Shown: piece by piece, positions 7,048 to 63,221 of the stretch
Layout: every line of letters starts with the position of its first letter
How positions within the stretch are numbered: the first letter of the stretch is position 1
Assembly: GCA_963632935.1 (NCBI GenBank)
Contig: CAVGWA010000001.1
Location: 20,216 to 84,215 of the forward strand
Origin: Oscillospiraceae bacterium
Lineage (GTDB): Bacteria > Bacillota_I > Bacilli_A > RF39 > UBA660
Direction of reading: 5' to 3'
DNA: 64,000 nt
Position numbers and translations under genes: made by a program
The notes under the pieces: generated by a model
Database searches by the model: none
Seen by the model: only the letters and a program-made list of their open reading frames with translations
What the model was told of the DNA's origin: nothing

Positions 7048-9353
7048 TATCTAGCACCCCCATATTTTAATTTATATAATTGATATTCTTGTCTAAGAAG
7101 TCTTACATTCTCAGCAGGTGATGTATATTTAGAGTAATTGTTGATAACTGGATTGAATTCAATGTTGTTTTTATTATCATTTGTATTGTTACTGTAACGT
7201 TCTAACATTAAGCTATTAGCATTAGGGTTAATCAATGGATTTAATGAGTTTTTTACACCATAATTGAGTGCTTTCATTGCTCCAGTAGTATTTTTCAATA
7301 TATCATCAAAAGATAATTTATTTGCCATATTTTGGGCCATCTTATCGGTTGCATTTTCTAATAAGTAACTTGATTGGTTAATTCCTTTAACCATACCTTT
7401 AACCATGTCAGGCATCCATGTTTCATAATCTCTTAGTGGTCCTATATCAGGTCTTGAAAAGTGTAAGAAATTTTTGATTTTGTCGGCAACACTCTTTGCT
7501 GCATCTCCAACTTTTCCTATCATATTTTTAATACCATCAATAAAGCCTTGAATCATGTCCTTACCCCAATCGAGAGCCATTTTAGGTAATTGACCCATCT
7601 TTTCTTTAATCGCACTAATAACTTTTAATATTCCAGTCCCAACTGCACTATTCATACTTATTATTCCAGATATTAAAGATCCAATTATCTTAATTCCAGC
7701 CTCAAATATTGTAGGTAAATTTGATTTGATTGCCGCAACTATTTTTAATACGATTGTTGGTATTGCCTCAACTATTTTAGCAAGTGAATCTGGAGCAGTT
7801 AATCCCTCTACTAAGCCCACAATAAGTTGTATTCCTGCATCAATTATTAAATCTATATTATCAATAATTGTATCTACAATATTCAATATGCAATCAACTA
7901 TTTGTGGTATTAATGTAGGTAACATTTCACCAAGTGAAATAGCTAATTGTGAAATAACTTGTATTAGTGTGTTTATTATAGTAGGAAGATTAGTTAATAA
8001 TAAATTAGCGATGTTTTGTATTAAATTTGTAATAAGTGGAATTAATTTAGGGAGCAACTCTGGAATCATCTTTATAATTTCATCTAGCATTTGGCTTATG
8101 ACAGGTATATATTTATCAGACATTTGAATCAAATGATTTGCAACATTAGTTGCAAAAGTTCCTAACTGTTTTAATAGATTATTCATTTCTTCACTAATGT
8201 CTTCTCCGCTTACCATCTTTTTAATCATGTCTTTTGCAGAATTCATTACTGGTGTTATACCTTCTAAAAGAGGTGTCATTATTTCTGCACCAACTCTTGA
8301 CAATGCACTTTTTAAATTAGCTAAAGATGACGTAAAGGTTTGTCCAGCATTCTGAGCAGCTCCTCCTAAACCTTGTTCCATTGCTTTTGAAAATTCTTCG
8401 AACCCTACTTTTCCAGCACTAACAAGTTTACTAACCTCGGATGTGCTAATTCCCATAGTTTCAGATAACATTTGTAAAATTGGTATGCCAGAATCAGATA
8501 ACTGATTTAATTCTTCCCCAGTAATTTTTCCGTTTGCAGCTATTTTATTAAATATAGAACCCATATCTTCCATAGAACGGCCTGACACTTGAGATGCGTC
8601 TGCTACAAGTTTTAAAGCACTTGTCATATCTTCTCCCTCTTTAATACCTGCAGCAAATAATCCACTTGCTACTGTAGCAGCACTATCCATAGAAAAAGCA
8701 GTGCCATCAACCGAGTCACTGACATTTTGCATTATTTCATCAAGCTGTTCTGTAGAATCAACAAATGTAGACATTTTAGCTTTAGCATTTTCCAAATTTA
8801 ATGCTCTATCAATACCACCAGAAATAACCATATTCCCTATTGAATTAGATATAGATTTAATTTTTCCTACTATGTTATCAAATACTCTAATAATTGCTTC
8901 ACTAGCAAGATTTGCTTTTATTAAATCTCCCACTTTGATAGCACTCTGACCCACTTTATCCATTTCATTAGTTATTGGTGTTAAATTGCCAGATTTGATA
9001 CTATCCAGTTCTTTATTCATCTTAACTAAATTACTTTGTGCCTTAGCAATTTCAATTGATAAATTAGTATACTGTTGTTTCTGCTCTTCTGTTAAATTAG
9101 AATACTCTCCTAATTGTGATTGAGCAGTTTTTAGCTGTTTTAATCTTTCAACGGTAGCACCTATGTTTGCAGTTAATAATTTTTGTTTGGTTGCTAATGT
9201 ATCAGTATTTGTAGGGTCTAATTTCAATGCTCTATTCAACTCCCAAAGCCCTGAGTTGGTTGAATAAACTACTTGATTAACATTTTTTAATGATTCTTCT
9301 AATTTAGATGTATTACCACCAATGTCTATAGTAATACCTTTTAAACTCGCCAT
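7047..9353 (-). CDS. phage tail tape measure protein (768 aa).
   Basis: Long alpha-helical/low-complexity protein with coiled-coil N-terminus and repeated IP..I segments. Lies between the major tail protein and Dit. Confidence 0.8.
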   Translation of the reverse strand: MASLKGITIDIGGNTSKLEESLKNVNQVVYSTNSGLWELNRALKLDPTNTDTLATKQKLLTANIGATVERLKQLKTAQSQLGEYSNLTEEQKQQYTNLSIEIAKAQSNLVKMNKELDSIKSGNLTPITNEMDKVGQSAIKVGDLIKANLASEAIIRVFDNIVGKIKSISNSIGNMVISGGIDRALNLENAKAKMSTFVDSTEQLDEIMQNVSDSVDGTAFSMDSAATVASGLFAAGIKEGEDMTSALKLVADASQVSGRSMEDMGSIFNKIAANGKITGEELNQLSDSGIPILQMLSETMGISTSEVSKLVSAGKVGFEEFSKAMEQGLGGAAQNAGQTFTSSLANLKSALSRVGAEIMTPLLEGITPVMNSAKDMIKKMVSGEDISEEMNNLLKQLGTFATNVANHLIQMSDKYIPVISQMLDEIIKMIPELLPKLIPLITNLIQNIANLLLTNLPTIINTLIQVISQLAISLGEMLPTLIPQIVDCILNIVDTIIDNIDLIIDAGIQLIVGLVEGLTAPDSLAKIVEAIPTIVLKIVAAIKSNLPTIFEAGIKIIGSLISGIISMNSAVGTGILKVISAIKEKMGQLPKMALDWGKDMIQGFIDGIKNMIGKVGDAAKSVADKIKNFLHFSRPDIGPLRDYETWMPDMVKGMVKGINQSSYLLENATDKMAQNMANKLSFDDILKNTTGAMKALNYGVKNSLNPLINPNANSLMLERYSNNTNDNKNNIEFNPVINNYSKYTSPAENVRLLRQEYQLYKLKYGGAR

Positions 9354-18972: not shown

Positions 18973-19650
18973 TTAATTCCGTAATTTTTTAGGTTTTTGA
19001 TGACCGATGAAGATAGCCTCACGATCTGCCTCTGCATCATCAATTCCCCAGTGCACGTAACGCATCGTGTAGTTGTAATCATCGTGATTATACATCTTCA
19101 TAAGTGTTTCAGGTTTACCACCATGAAGAATATACATATAGCCAAATGTTTTACGCAGACTATGTAATCCAAACTTAAAATCCATATTCACTGCATTTCC
19201 AGCTTTTTGAATAACTCTGCGTGCTTGTTGCTGAGTTATTGGAAGTATTACATTAGTTGTCTTTCCTTTGTACGTATTTATCGTTTTTTGTCCCATAAAT
19301 AGATAATCATTTGGCTTTAAATCAAACTCCTTGATATATTTAAGTACTTCATCGTGAAACTGCTTATTCATTCTGAAATTCTGCATCTTACCAGTTTTTA
19401 ACTCCTTAATTGATACATAACCTTTTTCTAATTGAAACACCTTTAATTGAAGCAAATTTTCAGCTCTAAACGCAGTATTGAATCCAATTAAACAGATCAT
19501 ATAATTACGATATGCTTGATAATACTTAATTTTTGACTTGGCATGCTCAACTTTAGACCACAGATTATCCATTAAAGCCTGCAGCTGTTTCTCGTCTTTA
19601 ATTGGTAAGGTTTCCTGTTGTCCTCCAAACAAAGCTATTCTTCTACCCAT
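18973..19650 (-). CDS. small tyrosine recombinase (225 aa, catalytic domain only, FimB/FimE-sized) with its own AGGAGG RBS.
   Basis: Conserved R (TAFRAENL), HSLRKTFG (H-x-x-R) and a C-terminal Y (TMRYVHW). GC content is visibly higher than that of flanking phage DNA. Confidence 0.7.
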   Translation of the reverse strand: MGRRIALFGGQQETLPIKDEKQLQALMDNLWSKVEHAKSKIKYYQAYRNYMICLIGFNTAFRAENLLQLKVFQLEKGYVSIKELKTGKMQNFRMNKQFHDEVLKYIKEFDLKPNDYLFMGQKTINTYKGKTTNVILPITQQQARRVIQKAGNAVNMDFKFGLHSLRKTFGYMYILHGGKPETLMKMYNHDDYNYTMRYVHWGIDDAEADREAIFIGHQKPKKLRN

Positions 19651-25169: not shown

Positions 25170-25418
25170 CTATTCTTCTTTATTTTCAACATTATTTTTG
25201 TGAATATATTCGCAAATATTTCTAAAAAAAATATCTGATGGAACATTATATTTTTCAAGAAAAGAATATAACTTTCCAATTTTTAAAATTTCAGGGTTGT
25301 TCTCATAAACACTTAATGTATTTTTATGAATACCAAGTATTTCAGCAGCACTTTCTAACGTCAATTCCTTACGTAATCTAATTAATTTTAATTCTCTGCC
25401 TATTTGTTCAACAAACAT
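25170..25418 (-). CDS. XRE-family HTH protein, Cro-like (same orientation as lytic genes).
   Basis: HTH_XRE motif LTLESAAEILGIHKNTLSVYEN. 82 aa. Divergent from the CI-like gene. Confidence 0.6.
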   Translation of the reverse strand: MFVEQIGRELKLIRLRKELTLESAAEILGIHKNTLSVYENNPEILKIGKLYSFLEKYNVPSDIFFRNICEYIHKNNVENKEE

Positions 25419-25557
25419 TTTCTACCTCCTATCTAGCATCATTATATGCGAATATATTCTCAAAGTCAATTGTTTTTGTGAAAAAATTCGCAGATTTGTT
25501 GATTTTTACATTTTTTTGCGATAGAATTAGTGTGAATAAATGTTGAGGAGGAAAAGA

Positions 25558-25956
25558 ATGGCAAACTATTTTGTAAAAAATTTAAAATATATTAGAAACC
25601 AAAAAAAAATATCCCAGCAAGAATTAGCTGATAAAATAGGGGTTGACCGTTCTACTATTGGATACTGGGAAAATGGTAAGGCAGACCCAACTTTATTAAA
25701 TGTTCAAAAACTATCTGATGCATTAAATATTAATATGATAAAGTTAGTTGGAACTGATTTATCTTTAGAAGAAAATCAAACAAATGAAAAAAAACAATTC
25801 TCCGAAGAAGAAAAAAAAGAGGCTTTAAAACAAGTGTTAAAAGATAAAGGCTTTTTTAATGAGAATGAAGAAATATCCAAAGATGATGTTGATAAATTAA
25901 TCGACTTTGCTAAAAGAAATAAAGATTATATTATAGATAAGAAAGAAGAAAAGTAA
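25558..25956 (+). CDS. XRE-family HTH repressor, CI-like. Start at MANYF with GAGGAGG RBS; the ORF-track start at 25540 is upstream in frame.
   Basis: ISQQELADKIGVDRSTIGYWENGKADP HTH. Divergently arranged from the Cro-like gene, heading the plus-strand lysogeny operon. Confidence 0.6.
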   Translation: MANYFVKNLKYIRNQKKISQQELADKIGVDRSTIGYWENGKADPTLLNVQKLSDALNINMIKLVGTDLSLEENQTNEKKQFSEEEKKEALKQVLKDKGFFNENEEISKDDVDKLIDFAKRNKDYIIDKKEEK

Positions 25957-25961
25957 AGTAT

Positions 25962-26633
25962 ATGAAAAGATTCGAATATGAAAACAAAATATTAAAATGG
26001 AAACCATGGGTACACATTGTATTAGGCATCTACACTTGTTTTTTATGGTTCATTGTTTTATTAATCATTTACTTTGATTATAATAATTCAAATAAAGAAT
26101 CAGCAAAAAAGGCAATTAATTCTAACACTGAAAATTATGACAACAAAAAGGAACCTATTATATCAGTACATTTTAAAGTTGCAGGTGTAACATTTGAAAA
26201 TAGACAAAAAATAATAAAACAAATTGTAAATGAAAATAAAAATACAATATTTCACAAACCGTATTATGGAATGACAAATAAAGAAATAATTGATAATGGA
26301 AATGAAATTTACGAAATAAATAATCTGAGTGTTAATTCTTTAAGATTAGAACCTACAACCTTCAAAAATGAAGATGCAATCGAAGTTTATATAAGTGATA
26401 ATGAAGAAAAAGAATATATGGTAGGATATGTTCCAGAACATAAAATTAAAGAAGTTCAAAAATTTTTAATAATGTACAATGAACACCCTAACTATCAATT
26501 AAAATCTGATGCATATTTTACTGGTGGTAAATACAAAGTTGGAGAATTTAATGATTGTAGCAAAGAAGTTATTAAAACATATAAAAACAATTATGGAATC
26601 AATATCAAGTTAGAATTATATGAGCAAAAATAA
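25962..26633 (+). CDS. membrane-anchored HIRAN-domain protein (lysogeny-module cargo).
   Basis: N-terminal TM helix. VAGVTFENRQ...LRLEPTTFKNEDAIEVY...YMVGYVPE fits the HIRAN pattern (hydrophobic-GY/R, EP.N..D..AI.V, IGY.P). Confidence 0.4.
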   Translation: MKRFEYENKILKWKPWVHIVLGIYTCFLWFIVLLIIYFDYNNSNKESAKKAINSNTENYDNKKEPIISVHFKVAGVTFENRQKIIKQIVNENKNTIFHKPYYGMTNKEIIDNGNEIYEINNLSVNSLRLEPTTFKNEDAIEVYISDNEEKEYMVGYVPEHKIKEVQKFLIMYNEHPNYQLKSDAYFTGGKYKVGEFNDCSKEVIKTYKNNYGINIKLELYEQK

Positions 26634-26744
26634 AAAAGAGTTAAAAACTTAATCAATATCTAACAAATAAATTATTGATTTTGTAAAAAAAATAAAGATT
26701 ATATTATAGATAAGAAAAATACCACAAAATAAGGAGTATGATGT

Positions 26745-27272: not shown

Positions 27273-27799
27273 AAATTTGACTTTAGAATAAAAATATGGT
27301 ATAAGTAAAGTAATCATTTAATTGATTATATTTAGTCCTTAACGGACACCTCAGTTTCTTTTGAAACTGTACTTGGCTTTTTACAAGCACTTAAGATACC
27401 ATATTTGGTATCTTTTATTTTATATAAACACATATAAAATTCTAAAAAAAGAAATTTACTAAACATTAATAATCAATGTCTAGTAAATAAATCAAAACTA
27501 TATAAAGTTCAATATTTAATCGATAGCTTTGTAATAGTTTATAAAAATCATCAAATTTCATAAAAACCTCCTAACGGAGAAAATATTATAATGTAAATTT
27601 AAAGATAATTAAAAACTCTCTAGCTGGAACTAGAGAGCAAATGAAAAATTTAAGCCACCAACTTAGCAAAAATAGGATTGAAATCAATACTATAATTGCA
27701 TACTATAACATACGATGCATATAAAATACAATACATATGCTACAATACAATTTTTCTATATAATTGTATCATAAATTTATTAATAAAGGAAGTGCTATA

Positions 27800-29308
27800 A
27801 TGAAAAAACAAATAATATCTGAATTTATTGATTGGTTAAAAAAAGAAAACTTATCTATAACCAATTTAAATGCAAAAAATACAATTGCTATTTATATTAG
27901 AGTATCAACTAACAAGCAAGAAGAATTAAGCCCATTAAGCCAATTAAAAGAGATATATAAATATGCTGTAAGAAATAATTATCAAATTGATATAAATCAA
28001 ATTTATGTAGAAGAGGAAGGTATAAGTGGTAAACATGCTGAAAAACGTAATGAATTTCAAAGTATGATTGCACACGCTAAATCTAAAGAAAAAGAATTTG
28101 ATACTATTGTTGTGTGGAAATTTTCAAGATTTGCAAGAAACCAAGAAGAAAGTATTGTTTATAAGAATATGCTTAAGAAAAACAATGTTAACGTTGTAAG
28201 TGTATCAGAACCTATCATAGATGGTCCTTTTGGCAGCCTGATAGAGCGAATTATCGAGTGGATGGATGAATACTACTTAATACGTCTTTCAGGTGAAGTT
28301 ACACGTGGAATGACCGAAGCAGCCAATCAAGGTCGTGTTCTTAGTACAGCACCGTTTGGATATCGTAATGAAAATAAAAAATATATAATTCATGAAGAAG
28401 AGGCGAAAATAGTTAAATGGATTTTTGAAACTTTTGTAGATGGAAAAATGAGCCAAATTGAAATGGCTAGACATATTAATAATCTAGGATTTAAAACCAA
28501 AAGGGGAAGTAAGTTTGAAAATAGAACTATTTCATACATTTTATTAAATCCGACGTATACTGGTAAAATACGATGGACGCCTAATGGAAAACTCACAAGA
28601 GAAGAACTATATAATAATACTAAATCAATTATAACAAAGGGAACACACGAGGCAATTATTAGTGAAGAATTATTTAAAAAGGCAAATGAAAGACTAAAAG
28701 AAAACAGGAAGTTCATGCACTCACATGAACATCACACAAAAATATGGCACTGGATGAAAGGTTTAATAAGATGTGAGTGTGGAAGGACATTTGTTAGAAC
28801 CAGTGGAAAATTACGCTGTAATGGGTATAATAAAGGTACTTGTACAGCATCTGATAGAATAGACTATAATGAAGTAGAATGCCTTGTTTTGGAACAATTA
28901 AAAAGAGATAGCACGCATAAAATAGCAATTGAAAATATAGTACAATCAAAAAAAGAGTCTAAAAAGACAAATGATCTAGAATATGAGGCACTTAAAAATT
29001 TAGAAAAAAAAGAAGAAAGAATAAAGGAAGCTTATCTTAATGGAATAGATTCATTAACTGAATATAAATATAATAAACAAAAGATACAAAAGGAACGAGA
29101 AATATTATTACAAAAAATAGAAGAAAATACAGAAAAAAAAGAAGATATTTCTATTGAAGAAAAGATAAGTGAAAACTTAAAAACCATCTACGAAACGCTT
29201 ACTGATGATAATGTAGATATAAAAAAGAAGTATGATATTGCCCATAGATATATAAACGTAATTACTTATAAAAGCGGCGTTTTATACATGAAATATAACG
29301 ATTTTTAG
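27800..29308 (+). CDS. large serine recombinase (prophage integrase, SpoIVCA/SprA-like class). Probable start at MKKQII (27800); the ORF is open from 27764.
   Basis: N-terminal resolvase domain AIYIRVSTNKQEE...S with catalytic Ser. Recombinase and zinc-ribbon regions and C-terminal coiled coil. Ends 20 bp from the attR core. Confidence 0.9.
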   Translation: MKKQIISEFIDWLKKENLSITNLNAKNTIAIYIRVSTNKQEELSPLSQLKEIYKYAVRNNYQIDINQIYVEEEGISGKHAEKRNEFQSMIAHAKSKEKEFDTIVVWKFSRFARNQEESIVYKNMLKKNNVNVVSVSEPIIDGPFGSLIERIIEWMDEYYLIRLSGEVTRGMTEAANQGRVLSTAPFGYRNENKKYIIHEEEAKIVKWIFETFVDGKMSQIEMARHINNLGFKTKRGSKFENRTISYILLNPTYTGKIRWTPNGKLTREELYNNTKSIITKGTHEAIISEELFKKANERLKENRKFMHSHEHHTKIWHWMKGLIRCECGRTFVRTSGKLRCNGYNKGTCTASDRIDYNEVECLVLEQLKRDSTHKIAIENIVQSKKESKKTNDLEYEALKNLEKKEERIKEAYLNGIDSLTEYKYNKQKIQKEREILLQKIEENTEKKEDISIEEKISENLKTIYETLTDDNVDIKKKYDIAHRYINVITYKSGVLYMKYNDF

Positions 29309-29328: not shown

Positions 29329-29339
29329 TATGGTGGACC
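29329..29339. repeat. attR core TATGGTGGACC, with putative crossover GG at 29335-29336.
   Basis: Identical to 935-945. The cotJC reading frame resumes through it. Confidence 0.8.
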
Positions 29340-29802
29340 CGCTGGTGAGCTTGCGGCTGCGTTTCAATATTTAGATCAACGTTATAATATGCCTGATGAT
29401 CGTGGTAAGGCTTTACTTACTGATATTGGTACTGAAGAGTTAGCTCATGTTGAGATTATTTCAACTATGGTGTATCAACTTATGAAAGGTGCGACTAAGG
29501 ACGAACTTTTAAAGGCTGGCTTGGATGGAATGTATGCTCAATTTGGAAGGGATTTATTTCCTTCTGATGCGATGGGAAATCCTTTTAATATGAGTTATAT
29601 TAAAGTTTCTGGTGATTATATTGCTGATTTGGAAAGTGATATGGGAGCGGAACAAAGAGCGCGAGCTACTTATGAACATTTGATGGATTTGACCGATGAT
29701 GCTGATATTTTGGGACCACTTTCTTTTTTAAGACAAAGGGAAATTATTCATTATCAAAGATTTAAGGAATTGCGTGATTATTATTTAAGTATGAAAAAAT
29801 AA
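29330..29802 (+). CDS. cotJC: 3' segment of cotJC (manganese-catalase-family spore coat protein). Conserved sequence resumes at ...YGGPAGELAAAFQYLDQRYNMPDD. The ORF-track Met at 29314 is fortuitous.
   Basis: Strong similarity to CotJC/Mn-catalase (GELAA..YL.QRY, EEL.H.E.I). The reading frame across the reconstructed attB is continuous with 851-946. Confidence 0.85.
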
Positions 29803-41454: not shown

Positions 41455-41660
41455 TTATAATTACCGTGAAATGCGAGGAAAGAAAGAACGGTAGGTAACT
41501 TTATAGAGAGTTTATGTTTGGTGGAAATAAACAAGGTGACTATCTTAAATGGCTCTGGAGCAGTCTAACTATGTTAGAACGTAATCACACGTTACGTGTT
41601 TGAGGTAAGTTTTCTTACAAATTAAGGTGGTACCACGTTCAAAACGTCCTTATATATAGG
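41455..41660 (+). promoter_or_regulatory. T-box riboswitch leader upstream of metG.
   Basis: Conserved T-box sequence AAGGTGGTACCACG at ~41626-41639 followed by terminator/antiterminator. Leader about 200 nt. Confidence 0.7.
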
Positions 41661-53035: not shown

Positions 53036-53050
53036 ATCTTCTCCTAAATA

Positions 53051-53132
53051 AAAAGGTACACACAATTAGTGGGCCTTAAGGCTGCTATCTTCCGATTCTG
53101 ACCTGATTCAACCATAATTGTTGTACCTCTTT
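53051..53132 (-). ncRNA. ffs: small-type signal recognition particle RNA (4.5S-like, ~80 nt).
   Basis: Minus-strand sequence AAUCAGGUCAGAAUCGGAAGAUAGCAGCC matches the conserved SRP domain IV (CAGGUCAGGUCCGGAAGGAAGCAGCC). It is closed by a GGUACAACAAUUAUGG/CCACUAAUUGUGUGUACC stem and a U-tract. Conserved location between tadA and upstream genes. Confidence 0.7.
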
Positions 53133-53209
53133 AATAATATAACATTTTTTTCAAAAAATCAACAAATAGTCAACATGTTAATAAGTAGTTTTCCACAGTA
53201 TTTCTTTTT

Positions 53210-54394: not shown

Positions 54395-56866
54395 TTAATT
54401 TGTTGATTTAGTTGATTCTTCTTTGATGTCCTCAGTTGGTAATTCTTCTGTATCTTTTTCTAGTAGGGCTATGCTACTCACTTTTTGATTATCCTTTAGA
54501 TTAATTAATCTGACTCCTTGTGCAACTCTTCCGGTTGTTGAAATTTGTTCAATTGGTAATCTAATAATTATTCCACTATCAGTTATAATCATTAAATCTT
54601 CATCCCCATTTACTAGTTTAAATGATACAATATTTCCGTTTTTATCCGTTATATTAAGAGCTTTTACGCCTTTGCTACCTCTATGAGTCATTCGATATTC
54701 ATCAGTATTTGTGCGTTTTCCATAGCCTTTTTCTGTTACAACTAATATTTGTTGATTTGATTGAGCTATTTCACAGCCAACACAGTTTCCATCTCCAAGT
54801 TCAATTCCTTTAACTCCTGAGGCAGTTCTTCCCATGATTCTGATTTCATTTTCATTAAATCTAATCATTCTACCATTTGAAGAAGCTATTATTATTTCAT
54901 TTTCTCCAGTTGTTTTCTTTGCTGATATTAACTCATCTCCGTCTTTTAAATTTATGGCTATTTTACCATTTGATCTTATATTTTCAAATTCACTTAAAGC
55001 GGTTCTTTTTATTAATCCTTTTTGTGTACAAAATACAATATTCTTACATTCTTCTTCATTGCTTACTTTAAGCATTGTTTTTACTATTTCGTCTTTTTCT
55101 AATGGTAATAAGTTAACAATTGGCAAACCTTTTGATTGTCTACTATATTGTGGTATTTCATATCCCTTAACTCTATATACTTTTCCTTTGTTTGTAAAGA
55201 ACATTAAATAATCATGCGTTGTCATTGATAATAATTTTTCCACATAATCATTTTCGTTTGTTGTCATTCCTTTAATTCCAACACCACCACGATTTTGGGT
55301 TTTGTATGTATCTGATGTCATACGCTTAATATAACCTTTATTTGTTAATGTTATAACGATGTTTTCCACAGGTATTAGTGATTCATCTTCTATATAGTCA
55401 ATTGCTGTCATATCAATGTTTGTGCGTCTTTCATCACCATATTTATTTTTGATTTCTAGCATTTCATTTTTAATAATTTCTAATATTTTTTCTTCGGAAG
55501 CTAATATTTCTTTATACATTTTTATTTTTTCTAGCAATTCATTTAATTCTGCTTCTATTTTATCTCTTTCTAAACCTGTTAAACGTCTTAATTTTAATTC
55601 AAGAATGGCTTCTGCTTGAACAAGTGTTAGACTATATTTTGCTGTTAATTTTTCTTTCGCTTCTACATCTGTTTTAGCTTCTTTGATAATTTTGATAAAA
55701 TCATCAATATTATCAAGTGCTATTTTATAACCTTCTAATATGTGAACTCTTTTTTCAGCTTTGTCTAAATCAAATTGTGTTCTTCTTGTAATTACTTCTT
55801 TTTGATGATCAATATATTTTGAAATAATATCTTTTAGTCCTAATGTTCTTGGTGTTTTATTATCTATCATAAGTAGGATAATACTATATGTTGTTTGAAA
55901 TTGTGTATGTTTATATAAATTATTTAAAACAACTTGTGGATTAGCATCTTTTTTCAAAGTAATTGTTATTTTTATACCATTTTTTAGGTCCGTGTGGTAA
56001 TCTGATATACCATCTATTACTTTTGTATGAACAAGTTCTGCAACTTTATTTTTAAGTTCTGATGTGTTTACTCCATATGGTACTTCATCGATTATGATAT
56101 AATGTCTTCCATTTTTTTCTTCGATTGTCGCTTTACTTCTTATTGTTATTGTTCCACGGCCTGTTTCATAGGCTTTTTTTATACCACTATTTCCTAGAAT
56201 TGTTCCACCTGTTGGAAAATCTGGACCTTTTATATACTGCATTAGACCAAGTGTATCAATTTCTGGATTATCTATGTATGCTACACAGCCATCTATTACT
56301 TCACTTAGGTTATGTGGTGGAATATTTGTCGCCATTCCAACTGCAATACCCATTGTTCCATTTACTAATATATTTGGAAAGCGAGAAGGTAGAATTGATG
56401 GTTCTTTTTCTGATTCGTCAAAGTTTGGTTCAAAATCCACAGTATTTTTTTTAATATCTCTTAGTAATTCTAATGATATTTTTGAAAGTCTTGATTCTGT
56501 GTAACGCATTGCTGCCGCACTAGATCCTGCAATATTACCAAAGTTTCCATGTCCATCTACAAGCATGTATCTATAACTAAAGTCTTGAGCCATACGAACC
56601 ATTGCTTCATAAATACTAGAATCTCCATGTGGATGGTATTTACCCATAACATCTCCGACTATACGAGCACTTTTTTTATGTGGTTTATCTGGTGTATATC
56701 CAGATTCATACATTGAATATAATATACGACGATGAACTGGTTTTAAACCATCTCTTAGGTCGGGTAGGGCTCTTGATTTGATAACACTCATGGAATATTC
56801 TATGAATGAGCTTTCTATTTCACTAACGATGTTATTTTCTAATAATCTATCTCTTGTGTGATCCAT
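54395..56866 (-). CDS. gyrA: DNA gyrase subunit A.
   Basis: Active-site region AAMRYTE, QRD region (YHPHGDSS), C-terminal beta-pinwheel repeats. 823 aa. Confidence 0.95.
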
Positions 56867-56876
56867 AAGTTACCTC

Positions 56877-58802
56877 CTATACATCTAAATTTTCCGCATA
56901 TTGTGCGTTTTCTTCTATAAATTTTCTTCTTGGTTCTACTTCTTCACCCATGAGTTTTGAAAAAGCTTCATCGGCTGCCATAGCATCTTCTACTGTTATT
57001 TTTCTTAAGGTTCTATGGTTTATATCCATTGTTGTTTCATTTAATTCTTCTGGGTCCATTTCACCTAAACCTTTCATACGCATGATATCATATTTTGTAT
57101 TAGGATTTAGTGAAGCTATATATTTGTCTCTTTCTTCTTCATTTAAAACATATTTTATTGTTTGACCATGTTTTATACAGAATAGGGGAGGCTGAGCAGC
57201 ATAAATGTGACCGGCTTCTACTATTGGTTTAAAGAAACGATAAAATAGTGTTAGTAATAATACTCTTATGTGTGAGCCATCAACATCGGCATCAGTCATT
57301 ATTATAATTTTATTATACCTTAATTTAGACAAATTAAATTCTTGCCCAATTCCTGTTCCAAAAGCTGTTATGATTGTTCTTATCTCTTCATTTGATAAAG
57401 CTCTATCTATTCTTGCTTTTTCCACATTTAAAATTTTACCTCTTAGTGGAAGAATTGCTTGTGTCATTGAATCTCTACCTTTAACGGCTGATCCTCCGGC
57501 ACTATCTCCCTCGACTATAAATATCTCACATTTTGATGGATCTTTATCTTTGCAATCTTCAAGTTTTCCACCGAAATTAACTACATCAAGGTCACTTTTT
57601 CGTCTAGTAAGTTCTCTTACTCTTTTGGCTGCGATACGTGCTCTTGCAGCTGTCATATTTTTATCAATTATTACTTTAGCTTCGTCTGGGTGCTCAAGAA
57701 GATATCTTTCAAAACCTTCTGAAAATACTTTGTCTGCTAATTTTCTTACTTCTGAGTTACCTAATCTACCTTTTGTTTGTCCTTCAAATTGTGGGTTAGG
57801 ATGTTTGCACGAGACTATCATTGTAAGTCCCTCTTTTACATCTTCACCACTTAGGGAAGAATCCTTTTCTTTTAAGATGTTATTTTTTCTAGCGTAATTA
57901 TTGATAACTCTTGTTAAGGCTCTTCTAACTCCTTCTTCATGTGTTCCTCCATCATGGGTATTTATGTTGTTAACAAACGAATAAATACTTTCTGAATAAT
58001 CTGTACAATATTGCATTGCTACTTCAAAAAATACACCTTCATCTTCGCCGTCTAGGTGAATTATGTCGCTTTGAATAGGTGTTTTATGTTTATTTAAATA
58101 TTTAACATATTCACTTATTCCACCTTCATAGTAAAATACATCTTGAAGTTTGTTATCTTCATCTCTTGTGTCTGTTAAAGTTATTTTTAAGCCTCTATTT
58201 AAGAATGCTAATTCTCTTGTTCTGGTTTTTAGGGTATCATAATCAAATATGTCTGTATCAAATATTTCTGCATCTGGTTTAAATGTTACCGTTGTACCAG
58301 TTTTTTCGATATTGCAATCGCCAATTTCAGTTAGTTTTTGTTTTATTTTGCCACCGTTTTCAAATTTGGCTTCATATATTTTACCATTTTTATATACAGT
58401 AACATCAACCCAAGATGATAGGGCATTTACAACTGAAGCTCCAACTCCATGAAGTCCACCTGATACCTTATATCCACCACCACCGAATTTTCCACCCGCG
58501 TGGAGAACTGTATATACTGTTTCTACTGTGGAAAGTCCTGTTTTTGGATGAATTCCTGTTGGAATACCACGTCCGTTATCTTGTACGGTGATGGAATTTC
58601 CTTTATTTATTGTAATTTCAATATGATTACAATATCCAGCTAAAGCTTCATCTATACTGTTATCTACTATTTCCCATACTAAATGGTGTAGGCCTTTGAC
58701 ATCTGTTGTTCCAATATACATTCCTGGTCTTTTTCTTACCGCTTCTAGACCTTCTAGAACTTGAATGTCGGATTCGTTGTAGTGCTGATTATTTTCGTTC
58801 AT
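56877..58802 (-). CDS. gyrB: DNA gyrase subunit B.
   Basis: GHKL ATPase motifs ([16 protein letters not shown]), Toprim [17 protein letters not shown]. 641 aa. Confidence 0.95.
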
Positions 58803-59914
58803 TTTTCCACCTCTTTTATTATTTTTCCATCTTTTATATGGATTAATTTAGCTTTGGATAGGAGTTTTTTATCTATGCTATCTAAATTTGTTGTTGTTAT
58901 TATTACTTGCATGCCACTATCTATGTAGTTTAATAAATTATTTTTTTTATTATTATCTAAATCACTAAATACATCATCAAGTAATATAATAGGACTTGTT
59001 TGTTTATAATCTTTGAATATTTCTATTTCAGATAGTTTTAAGGCTATTACTGCCATTTTTTGCTGTCCCTGAGAGCCGAATTCTTTTACTGAATTGTCTT
59101 CTATGTTGAAGATAAAATCGTCTCTGTGAGGACCATATAATGTTTTTTTTAGCTTCACTTCTTTTTCGTGATTATTTTTATATGCTTGATATAATGTGCT
59201 TTTTATTTCTTCTTTTTCAAATGTTTTTAAATCTATTGATGGGTAATATTGGATGTTAAAATTTTTTATTTTGGCTATGTTTTCATATATTGAAGGACAT
59301 ATTTTATTTAACTTTTCCACATACTTTTTTCGCATTTGATAAATAAAAACACTTTTGTTGATTAAATAATCTGTTAGAATATCAAAATAATTTAAATCAA
59401 TTTTTAAGCCCATGTTTAAATCTTTTAATAATTCATTTCTTGTTTTGAGAAGCTTATTGAAGTCGCTTAATGTTTGGTAATAGTTTGCTGAAATTTGTGA
59501 TAATTCTAGGTTAAAATATTTTCTTCTATCACCTGGAGAACCTTTTATCAAATCTAAATCTTCTGATGAAAAGATAATAATATTCATTTTTTCAATGTAA
59601 TCTGATATTTTTGTTATCACATTATTATCTATTTTTACTGTTTTTTTTGTTTTAGATAAATCTATTTCTAAATTGTATGGTATTTCTTTTTGTAAAGTTC
59701 CTTTTATTATAGCTTTATCTTTTCCTGATTTAATAAGGTTATCGGATGTATATGAACGGTGAGAAGAAGTAAGTCCTAGAATGTATATACTTTCAAGTAA
59801 ATTTGTTTTACCTTGACCATTTTCTCCATAGATGATGTTTATTTTGTCATCTAAATTAATTTTGAGGGATTCGTAATTTCGAAAACTATGCATTTCTATA
59901 TTTTTGATGATCAT
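58799..59914 (-). CDS. recF: DNA replication and repair protein RecF.
   Basis: Walker [16 protein letters not shown]-like signature region. Position between gyrB and dnaN. Confidence 0.9.
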
Positions 59915-60057
59915 AATTTACCTCATTTCGATTTTTAAGCTCTTCATTTTTGATTTATAGCATTTGGCATACTCCTATACCTCATATCCATTATACCATA
60001 AAATAAGGTTAAAAACGCAAAAATAAGCTAATTTTAGCTTATTTAATAAGTATTTTT

Positions 60058-60507
60058 TTATAATTTTCGTTTTTTTAAAACTAATAGTAGTTTTGTTGCC
60101 CTTAGAATTTGATTTTCTAGTGAGGGATATGATATATCAAGGTTTAATTCTGTTCCATTCATGAATGTTATTTTGCTTTGATAATCATTTTTTTCATATT
60201 TTAAAATATTATTTAATGAAATCCAAATGCATTCTTTTATTTCTGGTGAAGTTGTGGGAAAAAATATTATTTCTCTAGTTTCTTCAAGTATTATGGGTAA
60301 TTTGTATTTCATACCTAGTGCATATTTTGATGCTTCATTTCTTCCATTTAAAGTACTTCCATAGTATTTGCAATTATATTTAAGTAATTCCCTCACTGAT
60401 TTGTTTACTATTATTGTTTCATTTCCTGCAATTATTTTTGCTGTATTATTATTTTCTGGCATTATTGCATATGTTTCGCTATTAATCTCATAATTTTTGT
60501 CAAACAT
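60058..60507 (-). CDS. comK: ComK-family protein (competence transcription factor-like). It sits where yaaA (S4-domain RlbA) lies in Bacillus.
   Basis: Collinear motif matches to B. subtilis ComK: YEINSETYAIMPE / YEVNGATIAVLPE; YYGSTLNGR / FFGSSYAGR; IIFFPTTSP...CIWIS / IFLFPTLSS...CGWIS; ITFMNGTELNLDISYPSLENQILRA / VTFSNGKTMELPISYNSFENQVYRT. Confidence 0.55.
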   Translation of the reverse strand: MFDKNYEINSETYAIMPENNNTAKIIAGNETIIVNKSVRELLKYNCKYYGSTLNGRNEASKYALGMKYKLPIILEETREIIFFPTTSPEIKECIWISLNNILKYEKNDYQSKITFMNGTELNLDISYPSLENQILRATKLLLVLKKRKL

Positions 60508-60607
60508 AATCTTCCTCCTTTTTTTGAAACAACTCTCTTATACTCATAATGAATGTCAAAATTTGTTGTTTTTTGTCGATATGGTGGAAAAACTTAAAAA
60601 AAAGAAC

Positions 60608-61729
60608 TTAATATGTCCTAATTGGTAAAATTAGTTGTATTAAGTCGTCATTTTCTACATTTTTAAGAATTATTGGTTTTATTTCTCCGTTAAACATCAA
60701 TTCTATATCATTTGTTTCTAATGATTTAATTGCTTCCATCATATATTTTGAATTGAAGGCAATTTTTATTTCTGAATTATTGTTTTTTTCTATTTCTATT
60801 TTTTCTTCTACATTTCCTATTTCAGGAATATTTGAGGAGATGAGTGCTATATCGTTTGTTGATTCAAATTTTATTGTGTTTTTATCACTTTCATTTGTAA
60901 GAAGTGAGGCTCTATCAATGGCACTATATAAATCATCATATTTAACTTTCATTGTTAATTCAAAATTTTCTGGGATTAATTTAGATGTATCTGGATAAGT
61001 ACCACTTATTAATCTTGTCATCATTGTGATTGTTCCAAATCTGAATACTGCTTTATTTGCAAATATGTGCATTTCTATATCTTTTTCATCATCATTCATT
61101 AATTTAACTAATTCATTTAAATTCTTTGTAGGTATTATTATATTTGAATTTTCTGAGGCTTTTGTATCTAATTTTATTGTTTTAACTGCTAGTCTATATG
61201 AATCGGTTGCGGTGCATTTTATTATATCATCATTTATTTTAAAATTTATACCAGTTAAAACAGGTCTTGTTTCACTTACTGAGGTTGCAAATGATGTTTG
61301 ATTTATTATTGTTTTAAATAGTTTTTGATTTAATGTTATAGGATTTTGATTAAATTCTAATTCTAAATCTGGAAATTCATTTACATTGCTACAATTTAGA
61401 GTGAATGAAGAGTTTTTTGTTGTGATATATAGCTTAGAGTCAATTACTTCTTCTAAATTTATTATTTCATCTGGTAATTTTCTTATTATTTCATATATAT
61501 ATTTACCTGATACAACTATTTCTCCTTTTGTATCTATTTTAATTATATTTTTTTTATCTATAAATGTTTTAATTGATATATCACTATCTGTACTCATTAA
61601 ATACATTCCTTCATCTGTTAATTCAAATTTTATACAGTTTAATATTGGTCTTAAATTTTTGTTTGATATTCCTTTAATTACATAATTTAAATGTTCTAAT
61701 AGAACAGATTGTTTAATTTCTAATTTCAT
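60608..61729 (-). CDS. dnaN: DNA polymerase III beta sliding clamp.
   Basis: 373 aa. Three-domain clamp. N-terminus MKLEIKQSVLLEHLNYV typical. Confidence 0.9.
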   Translation of the reverse strand: MKLEIKQSVLLEHLNYVIKGISNKNLRPILNCIKFELTDEGMYLMSTDSDISIKTFIDKKNIIKIDTKGEIVVSGKYIYEIIRKLPDEIINLEEVIDSKLYITTKNSSFTLNCSNVNEFPDLELEFNQNPITLNQKLFKTIINQTSFATSVSETRPVLTGINFKINDDIIKCTATDSYRLAVKTIKLDTKASENSNIIIPTKNLNELVKLMNDDEKDIEMHIFANKAVFRFGTITMMTRLISGTYPDTSKLIPENFELTMKVKYDDLYSAIDRASLLTNESDKNTIKFESTNDIALISSNIPEIGNVEEKIEIEKNNNSEIKIAFNSKYMMEAIKSLETNDIELMFNGEIKPIILKNVENDDLIQLILPIRTY

Positions 61730-61781
61730 AAATTTTCTCCTTTATTTTTTTATTTTTAAATATATTCTTTATTATTGGTGT

Positions 61782-61863
61782 GGAAAAAGTTGATAACTAT
61801 AATTTTCCCTTGAAATATAAAGTTAAATCATTACTTTACACCATGTGGATAAATGTGGAAAAG
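61782..61863. promoter_or_regulatory. DnaA-box cluster between dnaA and dnaN (TGTGGAAAA, TGTGGATAA, TGTGGAAAA) with adjacent AT-rich tract. Downstream part of a bipartite oriC.
   Basis: One perfect and two single-mismatch DnaA boxes seen directly at 61782, 61844, 61855. Confidence 0.6.
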
Positions 61864-61874
61864 AATGTTTTTTT

Positions 61875-63221
61875 TCACTCTTTAATTTGATTTATTATTT
61901 TTGATATTTCTATTTCTAAGTTTTTATCTTTTTTTAGTTCTCTTTTTATTTTTGCAACTGAGTGCATTACTGTAGTATGGTCTTTCCCTCCAAATTCACT
62001 TCCTATTTTTGGTAAAGATTCTTTTAGATGTATCCTACATATATACATTCCTATTTGTCTTGGTACTGCTATTTTAGATAATCTTTTTTTAGATTTTATA
62101 TCTTCCACAGTTATATTGTAATTATTTGCGACTAGTTGTATTACTTGATCTATTTTATTTCTTGATATTATATTTTTTCCAATATAGTCTTTTAAAGCTT
62201 CTACAGCAAGTTCTAGGGTTATTTCAGAACCATTCATTATTGTGGCGTATGCTAATACGCGGGTTAAAGCACCTTCTAATTTTCTTATGTCAGTTGTGCA
62301 GTTGTTAGCAATATATTCTTTAACTTCCATTGGTACAAAGCTTTTCATATCATGTGCTTCTATTTTTTTATCTAATATTGCTAATCTTAGGTTTAATTCG
62401 GGTGGTAATATGTCTATGGTTAATCCCCAGTTAAATCTGGTTCTTAATCTTTCTTCTAGTTTTTTTAAGTCATCTGGTGATCTATCTGATGAAATAATTA
62501 TTTGTTTATTGTTTGTGTGTAAATCATTGAATGTGTTGAAAAATTCTTGTTGTGTTTTGCTGGCAATTTCTAAATATTGTATATCATCTATCATTAAAAC
62601 ATCAATGTCACGGTATTTTCTTTTAAAGTTATCCACAGCCTTGAAATTACTAGTTTCATTTTTTCTATATATATTAAGAAAGTCGTCTACAAATTTTTCA
62701 CTAGTAACATATAGAACTTTTTTATTAGATGTTGAAACGATGTAATTTCCTATGGCGTGCATAAGATGTGTTTTTCCTAGACCGCTTGAGCCATATATAA
62801 ATAGTGGATTATACATAGCACCTGGTTTTTCAGCAACTGCTAGCCCTATAGCTTTAGCAAATTTATTACTTTCTCCAGATATAAAATTATCAAATGTGTA
62901 TTTACTATCTAGTCCACTTTCAAATACTGCTTCATTGTTTTCTTCATTTTCTTCATTTGGTTCAATATTGTTTATTTCATTAGGTGTTACATATTTAAAT
63001 TTAAAAATTGAGCCAGTTACTTCCATAAATGTTTCTTTGATAATTTCTCCATAATTTTCTTTTAAATGTTTTTTATGTACATCTAATGGAACTTCAATTA
63101 TTGCATATTCATTATTTAAATCTATTAATTTTGTATCTTTAAACCATGTTTGAAACAAAACAGGTTTTAATTTTATTTCCATTTTAGATAAAAAAACGGT
63201 CCACATGCTTTCTAAATCCAT
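61875..63221 (-). CDS. dnaA: chromosomal replication initiator DnaA.
   Basis: AAA+ Walker A GSSGLGKTHL. Domain IV DnaA signature (basic-loop and HTH region). 448 aa. Confidence 0.95.
   Translation of the reverse strand: MDLESMWTVFLSKMEIKLKPVLFQTWFKDTKLIDLNNEYAIIEVPLDVHKKHLKENYGEIIKETFMEVTGSIFKFKYVTPNEINNIEPNEENEENNEAVFESGLDSKYTFDNFISGESNKFAKAIGLAVAEKPGAMYNPLFIYGSSGLGKTHLMHAIGNYIVSTSNKKVLYVTSEKFVDDFLNIYRKNETSNFKAVDNFKRKYRDIDVLMIDDIQYLEIASKTQQEFFNTFNDLHTNNKQIIISSDRSPDDLKKLEERLRTRFNWGLTIDILPPELNLRLAILDKKIEAHDMKSFVPMEVKEYIANNCTTDIRKLEGALTRVLAYATIMNGSEITLELAVEALKDYIGKNIISRNKIDQVIQLVANNYNITVEDIKSKKRLSKIAVPRQIGMYICRIHLKESLPKIGSEFGGKDHTTVMHSVAKIKRELKKDKNLEIEISKIINQIKE

Follow-up and report, generated by a model that had tools for sequence, protein, structure and literature searches.

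In a stretch of 64,000 nucleotides (nt) from an Oscillospiraceae bacterium, which we call the window, a prophage carries directly behind its repressor gene a second gene (positions 25962-26633) whose product ties what is very probably a divergent HIRAN domain to the membrane through a predicted N-terminal transmembrane (TM) helix. It belongs to a kind of lysogeny-module cargo that has been named, as thaL, and is otherwise uncharacterised, and we think of it, as a leaning rather than a conviction, as a lysogen-expressed exclusion or abortive-infection determinant that would act at the membrane against incoming DNA or phage. Under this proposal the gene would be mobile 'moron' cargo, a cassette carried in the immunity operon of the prophage and expressed together with the repressor in the lysogen, and its product, a single-pass anchor followed by a flexible linker and the divergent HIRAN-superfamily domain, would keep that domain on the cytoplasmic side of the membrane, at the place of DNA entry. 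A remodelled pocket (F78, Y156, the GGKxK loop and a helical insert) might there recognise a nucleotide, the end of a nucleic acid or some part of an incoming phage, and binding would either block establishment of the invader or trigger membrane damage.

Few phage genes are expressed in every lysogen, and those co-transcribed with a prophage repressor belong to them; time and again such genes have proved to act in exclusion or defence. The family described here is common in Bacillota prophages and travels as a compact cassette, and a role of this kind would account for a gene that recurs in prophages of clinical importance and reveal a bacterial use of HIRAN, a domain whose use is known only from eukaryotic fork remodelling.

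The gene and its product

The open reading frame (ORF) is a genuine gene rather than one arisen by chance, and purifying selection acts on it. In a set of 5.8 billion proteins its product has 19 homologues at E <= 1e-3, an exhaustive profile search reached 746 cluster representatives at E <= 1e-3 (290 at E <= 1e-10), and against the homologue at a locus that we label L001 (81% amino-acid (aa) identity) the ratio of non-synonymous to synonymous substitution rates (dN/dS) is 0.21, with the anchor/linker part and the domain alike in this respect. It begins 5 nt past the repressor stop, on the + strand and upstream of the integrase. An earlier note on this DNA had described the ORF, its neighbours, its N-terminal TM helix and a set of HIRAN-like motifs, and all of them are there in the sequence, the motifs being VAGVTFENRQ (aa 73-82), LEPTTFKNEDAIEVY (aa 129-143) and VGYVPE (aa 154-159).

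A basic N-terminus of 16 residues leads into the predicted TM helix, with the basic juxtamembrane motif KILKWKPW ahead of it; the hydrophobic stretch (aa 17-38) reaches a Kyte-Doolittle maximum of 2.61 over 19 residues, and AlphaFold2 places it inside a single long helix running from aa 15 to 53. The linker that follows is disordered and varies in length and sequence among homologues. In the model the domain is compact, spanning aa 67-221 in the order beta1, insert, beta2, beta3, beta4, alpha1 and beta5-beta6 hairpin, with a predicted local distance difference test (pLDDT) score of 90.3 and a predicted template-modelling score of 0.82 for the domain alone, and a pLDDT of 83 for the full-length protein. 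The insert, about 45 aa with the motif YxGxTNKEI, is modelled as three helices and holds the conserved residues R81, Q82, Y101, G103, T105, N106, K107, E108, I109 and E118, while the beta5-beta6 hairpin carries the invariant motifs T187-G-G-K190-x-K192 and Y211-G212. Invariant in the close family are F71, G75, Q82, N106, I109, E118, G155, V157, T187, G188, G189, K192 and G212; over 149 family representatives the best-kept positions are G75, Q82, Y101, G103, NKEI 106-109, E118, A139, GYVPK 155-159, GGKxK 188-192 and Y211-G212.

Homology to HIRAN

The assignment of this domain to the HIRAN superfamily is transitive and profile-based, since neither the Pfam HIRAN model (PF08797; gathering score 24.7 bits) nor Foldseek against the Protein Data Bank (PDB) matches the protein directly. 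The window protein does not match Pfam HIRAN even at E <= 1, phmmer and hmmsearch against PDB sequences gave chance matches only, and Foldseek against the PDB, run with the full-length and the domain-only (pLDDT ~90) models, found no HIRAN and nothing significant. Scans of the protein against Pfam, PHROG, PADLOC and NCBIfam were uninformative, the sole PHROG match being phrog_13363 (function unknown, E 1.2e-5).

The links run instead through relatives. The window protein aligns with UOX38155.1 of Bacillus phage BUCT083 (BLASTP, 34% identity, 160 aa, E 3e-11), which itself scores 30.5 bits on Pfam HIRAN, in an alignment that spans the same helical insert; with IPP12_00002 of a pneumococcal prophage (27% identity, 162 aa, E 2e-6), which scores 39.7 bits and has its TM segment at the C-terminus; and with JS01_018 of a Staphylococcus aureus phage, which scores 43.4 bits and has the GGKYK and YG motifs. 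Altogether 75 of the 149 family representatives match Pfam HIRAN (E <= 0.01; best E 4.6e-12). For profile comparison we used three alignments, A1 (the close family), A2 (the broad family) and A7 (the subset without pocket residues). A2 against the HIRAN domain of HLTF, whose sequence was checked to be identical to the PDB chains, gave 70% in hhalign (E 4e-5, over beta2 to alpha1), and A1 and A7 against an independent HIRAN family gave 81.5% and 83% (E about 1e-5). That independent family consists of standalone phage proteins of 95-111 aa, namely the ZQG1 protein and three homologues; deeper independent profiles were tried, and yielded three proteins with a ZQG1-type query and 19, mostly fragmentary, with HLTF. 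Among the predicted structures of viral proteins in the BFVD library, Foldseek ranks HIRAN-annotated phage proteins highest (E 9e-7, probability 1.0, target-normalised TM-score 0.76), and the order of secondary-structure elements in the model, beta1-beta2-beta3-beta4-alpha1-beta5-beta6, is that of HLTF HIRAN, a solved structure of which Foldseek did not retrieve.

Might the likeness be spurious, and the domain an unrelated beta-rich fold? We consider this very improbable. The missing Pfam match, the two negative Foldseek searches of the PDB and a comparison of the close-family alignment with the single HLTF sequence that gave only 0.6% in hhalign would all fit such a view, and they are outweighed, we think, by full-length alignments to three Pfam-positive proteins, by Pfam matches in half of the relatives, by the independent profile comparisons and by structural matches and strand order that agree with HIRAN. 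The HIRAN-like module claimed in the earlier note, which proposed profile and structure searches as its check, is thus supported by profiles, relatives and matches among predicted viral structures, and finds no support in direct searches of Pfam and the PDB or in the single-sequence comparison. What sets the family apart is the helical insert together with the GGKxK hairpin, which mark it as a distinct HIRAN subfamily.

A travelling cassette behind the repressor

The position directly behind a repressor gene is conserved over many unrelated prophages, and the placement in a prophage lysogeny region that had been proposed from the window alone is borne out with it. Eight prophage lineages besides that of the window show the gene in this place, with integrases of serine or tyrosine type. 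The order repressor, homologue, serine integrase is found at L001 (with a Bro-N gene in between) and at L005/L011/L016, and the order repressor, homologue, tyrosine integrase at L003/L012, L006, L022/L023 and L025; at L026 the homologue is followed by a tyrosine integrase, and the gene upstream is cut and unidentified. S. aureus phage JS01 has the repressor-homologue-integrase order too, pneumococcal IPP12 additionally has a ParE toxin-antitoxin pair between regulator and homologue, and distant relatives (26-31% identity) also adjoin helix-turn-helix (HTH) regulators and integrases. The spacing from repressor to homologue runs from -4 to 63 nt, with overlaps of 4 nt at L005 and L025. A TM-less clade (P0014, P0016) is encoded by a lone gene that runs on the other strand, flanked by the lysis cassette and the early genes. 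The L005 prophage adjoins a ComEC-type competence gene (7189-8703, - strand; DUF4131, Competence and Lactamase_B domains), and may be inserted at or in a competence locus.

The gene also behaves as a cassette. Nucleotide similarity between the window and L001 (87.6%) is confined to 25936-26636, with unrelated repressors and downstream genes on either side, and in the window the cassette lies between the two copies of a 39-nt direct repeat. Since the right copy is a remnant of a repressor 3' end, with a TAA stop that shares bases with the GGAG site for ribosome binding ahead of a PemK-like gene, an ancestral repressor-PemK junction was split by insertion of the cassette, and the repeat is the recombination scar of that event. 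Base composition shows no break at the cassette (22-26% guanine plus cytosine (GC) throughout). A blastn search of the locus against the phage collection gave no match, and exact-pattern searches of viral and metagenome contigs with the repeat and with the repressor/PemK junction found none, so that no cassette-free sister prophage was recovered.

From the layout of the module, co-transcription of the gene with the repressor is likely. The module has a single + strand terminator-like hairpin, about 350 nt before the integrase, and this is the probable end of a repressor/HIRAN-like/PemK transcription unit; together with a gap of ~490 nt it sets the integrase apart from the gene, and of the operon with both repressor and integrase that was claimed earlier it is the repressor side that is likely. 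Divergent promoter-like hexamers sit in the 121-nt gap between repressor and cro (25441-25527), as pattern matches only, and over that intergenic region as a whole promoter-like patterns are not enriched relative to shuffles. The window repressor is an HTH_3 domain with an acidic C-terminal tail and without an S24 protease domain; elsewhere the cassette mostly follows repressors of the self-cleaving HTH plus S24 types. Rfam found no RNA in the region.

Named relatives and analogous systems

A HIRAN-family domain and a membrane anchor are joined in one polypeptide in ThaL of the pneumococcal prophage phiRMV8, as in the window protein, and its gene, like the one in the window, has a Cro/CI-type regulator on one side and the integrase on the other within the lysogeny module. 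It was named in a paper on the conflict between prophages and transformation, in which its function was not tested (PMC12637031). IPP12_00002, which probably represents ThaL among sequenced pneumococcal prophages, aligns over the whole domain of the window protein, insert and GG-x-YK hairpin included, but is tail-anchored (domain N-terminal, TM segment C-terminal) where the window protein has its TM helix at the N-terminus, and it keeps the canonical pocket motif DNRYDPNAIKV, whereas in the window protein the pocket residues are replaced. An architecture that the earlier note called poorly characterised is indeed uncharacterised, and had already been noticed under the name thaL. With the HIRAN domain of HLTF (PDB 4S0N, 4XZF, 2MZN) the window protein shares the core motif L-x-x-E/D-P...A-I-x-V...G-Y/H-V/L-P/K-K, and differs in having a 45-aa insert after beta1 and a long GGKxK hairpin and in lacking alpha2; HLTF, moreover, is an enzyme that remodels forks in the nucleus and is not membrane-bound.

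For the place of the gene there are instructive parallels. In the cI-rexA-rexB operon of phage lambda, the immunity promoter drives the exclusion genes along with the repressor, and one of the two Rex proteins sits in the membrane; the Rex fold is unrelated, and the analogy is one of logic only. Sie2009, a superinfection-exclusion protein, is said (by McGrath in 2002 and Mahony in 2008) to block DNA injection. Genes of the Sie2009/Ltp type occupy the slot between repressor and integrase and are membrane-associated and lysogen-expressed, as is predicted for the window gene; they face outwards, while most of the evidence from the family points to the cytoplasm, and Ltp, a superinfection-exclusion lipoprotein with HTH repeats from lactic-acid-bacteria prophages (PMC3952083), has a fold different from that of the window protein. 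For the architecture, AbiP of Lactococcus (PMC13064643) and PdpSau, encoded by an accessory gene of S. aureus prophages (PMC10127798), are membrane-anchored abortive-infection proteins with nucleic-acid-binding domains; AbiP/AbiC and PdpSau, like the window protein, combine an N-terminal TM helix with a small beta-rich (nucleic-acid-binding or OB-like) domain. The gene for PdpSau lies beside lysis genes and the window gene behind a repressor, and the AbiP and PdpSau domains are basic where that of the window protein is acidic. Homology to PdpSau was considered and rejected, with hhalign of A2 against PdpSau (phage 53 ORF016) at 0.2%.

HIRAN modules have also been met elsewhere in bacterial conflict systems. 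An antitoxin or regulatory role has been proposed for them in HipA-like systems (bioRxiv 10.1101/2021.04.14.439929), in which HipN and HipL, proposed DNA-end binders, are fused to HipS-like or kinase domains, and they adjoin diDNase genes in islands (PMC11706625). HipN and HipL lack a membrane anchor and lie outside lysogeny modules; the window family, for its part, has no conserved toxin partner.

Membrane anchoring in the family

Among 165 family sequences, 66 have no hydrophobic segment, 63 have one N-terminal TM segment, 21 have two and one has three, and 14 have one or more at the C-terminus, so that 60% carry a membrane anchor, be it an N-terminal TM helix, a TM hairpin, a TM2 domain or a C-terminal tail anchor. 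The TM2 domain occurs in 10 representatives, and others carry zinc ribbons, DUF6681, DUF4428, bacterial PH domains or an RNase_T exonuclease. Because the anchors are so varied and interchangeable, membrane location, rather than a particular pore-forming helix, seems to be the selected trait. Several architectures imply that the domain is cytoplasmic, among them tail anchors with C-terminal tails of 0-6 residues, a zinc ribbon split around a TM hairpin, direct zinc-ribbon fusions and the RNase_T fusion, and in the members with a single N-terminal TM segment the domain-side flank is the more basic one in 38, with the opposite in 14. On balance we place the domain, with some reserve, on the cytoplasmic side.

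The family was found in gut metagenome-assembled genomes (MAGs), in Sa3int-type phages of S. aureus, in pneumococcal prophages and in SPbeta-like phages; the nearest homologues come from rabbit-gut MAGs of Bacilli and Clostridia. Odd fusions occur in P0050, P0032, P0045, P0053, P0111, P0035 and P0074 (alignment A2). The types seen are a TM segment with a HIRAN-like domain and an RNase_T 3'-5' exonuclease, a zinc ribbon split by a TM hairpin, and a HIRAN-like domain with zinc ribbons and then a C-terminal TM segment behind it.

The pocket and its possible ligand

We take HLTF, from the structures of 2015, to hold the 3'-terminal nucleotide by means of Y72, N90/N91, Y93, D94, H110, K113 and F142. 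By alignment the window equivalents of Y72, N90/N91, Y93, D94, H110 and K113 are F78, T132/T133, K135, N136, Y156 and E159, the pairing of F78 with Y72 coming from the motif alignment, and only the two aromatic positions, F78 and Y156, are conservatively kept. The DNA-contacting residues were defined in the HLTF HIRAN structures, with Phe142 named (bioRxiv 10.1101/2021.04.14.439929). Conserved residues of the family fall at the end of beta1, at the junction of beta4 with alpha1 and in the loop between beta5 and beta6, all of which line the pocket in HLTF, and others lie on the insert; on this ground a ligand pocket is probably retained. The canonical pocket (N, Y/F, D) is kept in 67 of the 149 representatives. 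Its loss is scattered across soluble, N-anchored and C-anchored forms, and a link of the loss to N-terminal-TM architecture was accordingly rejected. The canonical-pocket and pocket-lost subtypes offer a ready-made contrast of structure and function.

Weighing the proposal and its rivals

The proposal of a lysogen-expressed exclusion or abortive-infection determinant draws on the findings set out above (a gene under purifying selection, HIRAN homology, the conserved place behind the repressor, cassette behaviour and recurrent anchoring), and is supported further by the cytoplasmic partners seen in relatives (zinc ribbons, the RNase_T 3'-5' exonuclease and the tail-anchored forms) and, by analogy, by the precedents of AbiP and PdpSau. 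A good deal also weighs against it. The literature knows thaL as an annotation only; PADLOC-DB 2.0 gave no defence family for the window protein at E <= 0.1; and the direct Pfam and Foldseek-PDB searches for HIRAN were, as said, negative. The HLTF residues that contact the 3'-OH are replaced in the window protein (N91->T133, Y93->K135, D94->N136, K113->E159), all three core pocket residues are gone in 64 of the 149 relatives, and the isoelectric point (pI) of the domain is 5.9 (family median 4.8, with 97% below 7), against 9.6 for HLTF HIRAN. The acidic domain argues against general DNA binding, which is unlikely here, and with the 3'-OH residues replaced as well, binding of 3' ends or forked DNA, carried over from HIRAN in the earlier note, cannot simply be transferred from HLTF. 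As to topology, the window protein has 5 K/R residues in the flank N-terminal to the helix and 3 after it, from which the charge rule favours N-in/C-out, and in the relative P0042 the order zinc ribbon, KILKW motif, one TM segment and then domain would put the domain outside. Finally, 40% of the family lack an anchor and SPbeta-like phages hold a soluble homologue among early genes, so that the basic activity of the domain is not intrinsically one of lysogen defence.

This topology evidence feeds an alternative that we find unlikely, yet deserving of a hearing, namely extracellular superinfection exclusion, in which an N-in signal anchor would set the HIRAN-like domain on the outer face of the membrane, there to bind an entry factor of the host or else a protein of the phage (tail, tape-measure or ejection), and so to block injection in the manner ascribed to Ltp and Sie2009. 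The flank charges, which the closest relatives share, the order in P0042, the lost 3'-OH residues and the acidity of the domain would all suit it, and sie genes of lactic-acid-bacteria phages classically sit between repressor and integrase; it has to contend, however, with the 40% of the family that have neither signal nor anchor, with the tail anchors and the zinc-ribbon and RNase_T fusions that imply the cytoplasm, with the prevailing flank charges among single N-terminal-TM members, and with a loss of pocket residues that is unlinked to that architecture. Distinctly unlikely, in our view, is a part in the lysis-lysogeny decision, with the protein as a membrane sensor of single-stranded DNA (ssDNA), DNA ends or damage that modulates, with the repressor, the prophage's own induction or immunity. 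The tight and conserved coupling to the repressor gene, overlaps at L005 and L025 included, and the RecA-sensitive HTH-S24 type of most partner repressors are what one would then expect. Pneumococcal C1-type prophages with thaL respond to imported ssDNA (PMC12637031), and a HIRAN prophage cargo gene was scored 'required', as repressors are, by transposon-directed insertion-site sequencing (TraDIS) in Salmonella Typhi (PMC3632133). The pneumococcal study gives no direct evidence tying thaL to induction, though, the cassette moves regardless of repressor type (HTH-only in the window, HTH-S24 elsewhere), and TM-less relatives lie away from any repressor.

A further idea, which we hold to be quite improbable, looks to transformation: tethered by the DNA-uptake channel, the protein would capture the entering strand and lower the recombination that cures the prophage. 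Transforming ssDNA reportedly, after Mejean and Claverys, enters 3' end first; the pocket motif for 3' ends, N-x-Y/F-D, persists in its canonical form in half of the family, a 3'-5' exonuclease is part of one relative, membrane anchoring recurs, the sole paper naming thaL concerns the conflict of prophages with transformation, and one related prophage (L005) lies beside a ComEC-type gene. Set against this, the window protein has lost the pocket residues, and nothing within the window indicates a competent host. It is a long shot that the ThaL-like family as a whole serves, tethered to the membrane, to sense or trap nucleic-acid ends at the point of DNA entry, whether of a superinfecting genome or of a 3'-leading transforming strand, with the acidic, pocket-lost variants as a second functional type that has another ligand (a protein or a modified end). 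If true, this would be a new class of single-gene, lysogen-expressed defence at DNA entry built on a eukaryotic-type DNA-repair domain, and capture of the transforming strand would protect the prophage from 'chromosomal curing'. Scarcely credible, lastly, is that the window protein serves as antitoxin or regulator of the PemK/MazF-like toxin encoded downstream. The gene order, upstream gene and then toxin, the absence of any other evident antitoxin and the description of HipN and HipL as HIRAN-containing putative antitoxins (bioRxiv 10.1101/2021.04.14.439929) speak for it. Synteny largely refutes it: no other homologue locus examined has a PemK gene adjoining the homologue, the PemK-like homologues (59-70% identity, three metagenome contigs) are solitary too, and the repressor 3'-end remnant between the two genes shows that the HIRAN-like cassette was inserted between repressor and PemK. 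The co-occurrence with the MazF-like gene that was to be checked is thus absent, and a MazF partnership was rejected.

Features of the locus

Coordinates of the gene, its domains and its neighbours in the window
Feature	Position	Strand	Basis or remark
Cro-like HTH gene	25170-25418	-	
Promoter-like site TTGACT-17-TATAAT	25469-25441	-	consensus scan
Promoter-like site TTGATT-17-TAGAAT	25499-25527	+	consensus scan
CI-like repressor, 138 aa	25540-25956	+	Pfam HTH_3 E 9.7e-19; PHROG transcriptional repressor/regulator families
39-nt direct repeat, left copy	25906-25944	+	3' end of repressor ORF; left similarity edge (25936) inside
ThaL-like membrane-anchored protein, very probably divergent HIRAN, 223 aa	25962-26633	+	ATG start; gene under study
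Predicted TM helix, aa 17-38, VHIVLGIYTCFLWFIVLLIIYF	26010-26075	+	hydropathy; AlphaFold2
Low-complexity N/K/E-rich linker, aa 39-66	26076-26159	+	pLDDT < 50 at aa 47-60
beta1 of HIRAN-like domain, aa 67-78, FKVAGVTF	26160-26195	+	AlphaFold2; alignments A1/A2
Family-specific helical insert between beta1 and beta2, aa 79-125	26196-26336	+	alignments; AlphaFold2
HIRAN core beta2-beta3-beta4-alpha1, aa 126-175 (LRLEPTTFKNEDAIEVY ... VGYVPEHKIKEVQKFL)	26337-26486	+	hhalign
Long beta5-beta6 hairpin, aa 176-221	26487-26624	+	alignments; AlphaFold2
39-nt direct repeat, right copy, 92% identical	26679-26717	+	dead repressor 3'-end remnant, reads ...KDYIIDKKNTTK*
PemK/MazF-like gene, 175 aa	26745-27272	+	Pfam PemK_toxin E 2.6e-10
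Terminator-like hairpin, then T run	27393-27414	+	sole + strand terminator-like hairpin in module
Large serine recombinase (integrase), right prophage end	27764-29308	+	Pfam Resolvase, Recombinase, Zn_ribbon_recom; phrog_95

The PemK/MazF-like protein has an N-terminal extension of ~50 aa, and its PHROG label is 'antitoxin mazE-like' (phrog_1412, E 3.7e-41). On the - strand, opposite to the lysogeny module, the prophage has its complete complement of genes for replication, packaging, heads, tails and lysis. A small tyrosine-recombinase-like gene (225 aa, phrog_216, 18973-19650, - strand) stands among these early and late genes despite the serine integrase, and a comparable one is present in L001, L005, L022 and L025.

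The prophage is ~28.4 kb long, with 11-nt attachment cores, TATGGTGGACC, at both edges (937-947 and 29329-29339), the large serine recombinase adjoining attR. It splits a cotJC-like gene (manganese-catalase family, spore coat) into pieces at 852-947 and 29329-29802, and a cotJB-like ORF lies at 342-842. When the two halves of the cotJC-like gene are joined over the 11-nt core, the sequence ...MTQYGGPAGELAAAFQYLDQRY is restored; excision during sporulation may thus rebuild cotJC, and by analogy the prophage resembles the intervening elements SPbeta (in spsM) and skin (in sigK). Elsewhere in the window there are a T-box leader (41467-41654, + strand) and a small signal recognition particle RNA (53043-53136, - strand), and from 54395 to 63221 (- strand) ORF sizes and order alone resemble dnaA-dnaN-recF-gyrB-gyrA; if that reading holds, the prophage looks to be close to the replication origin of a host of ~25% GC.

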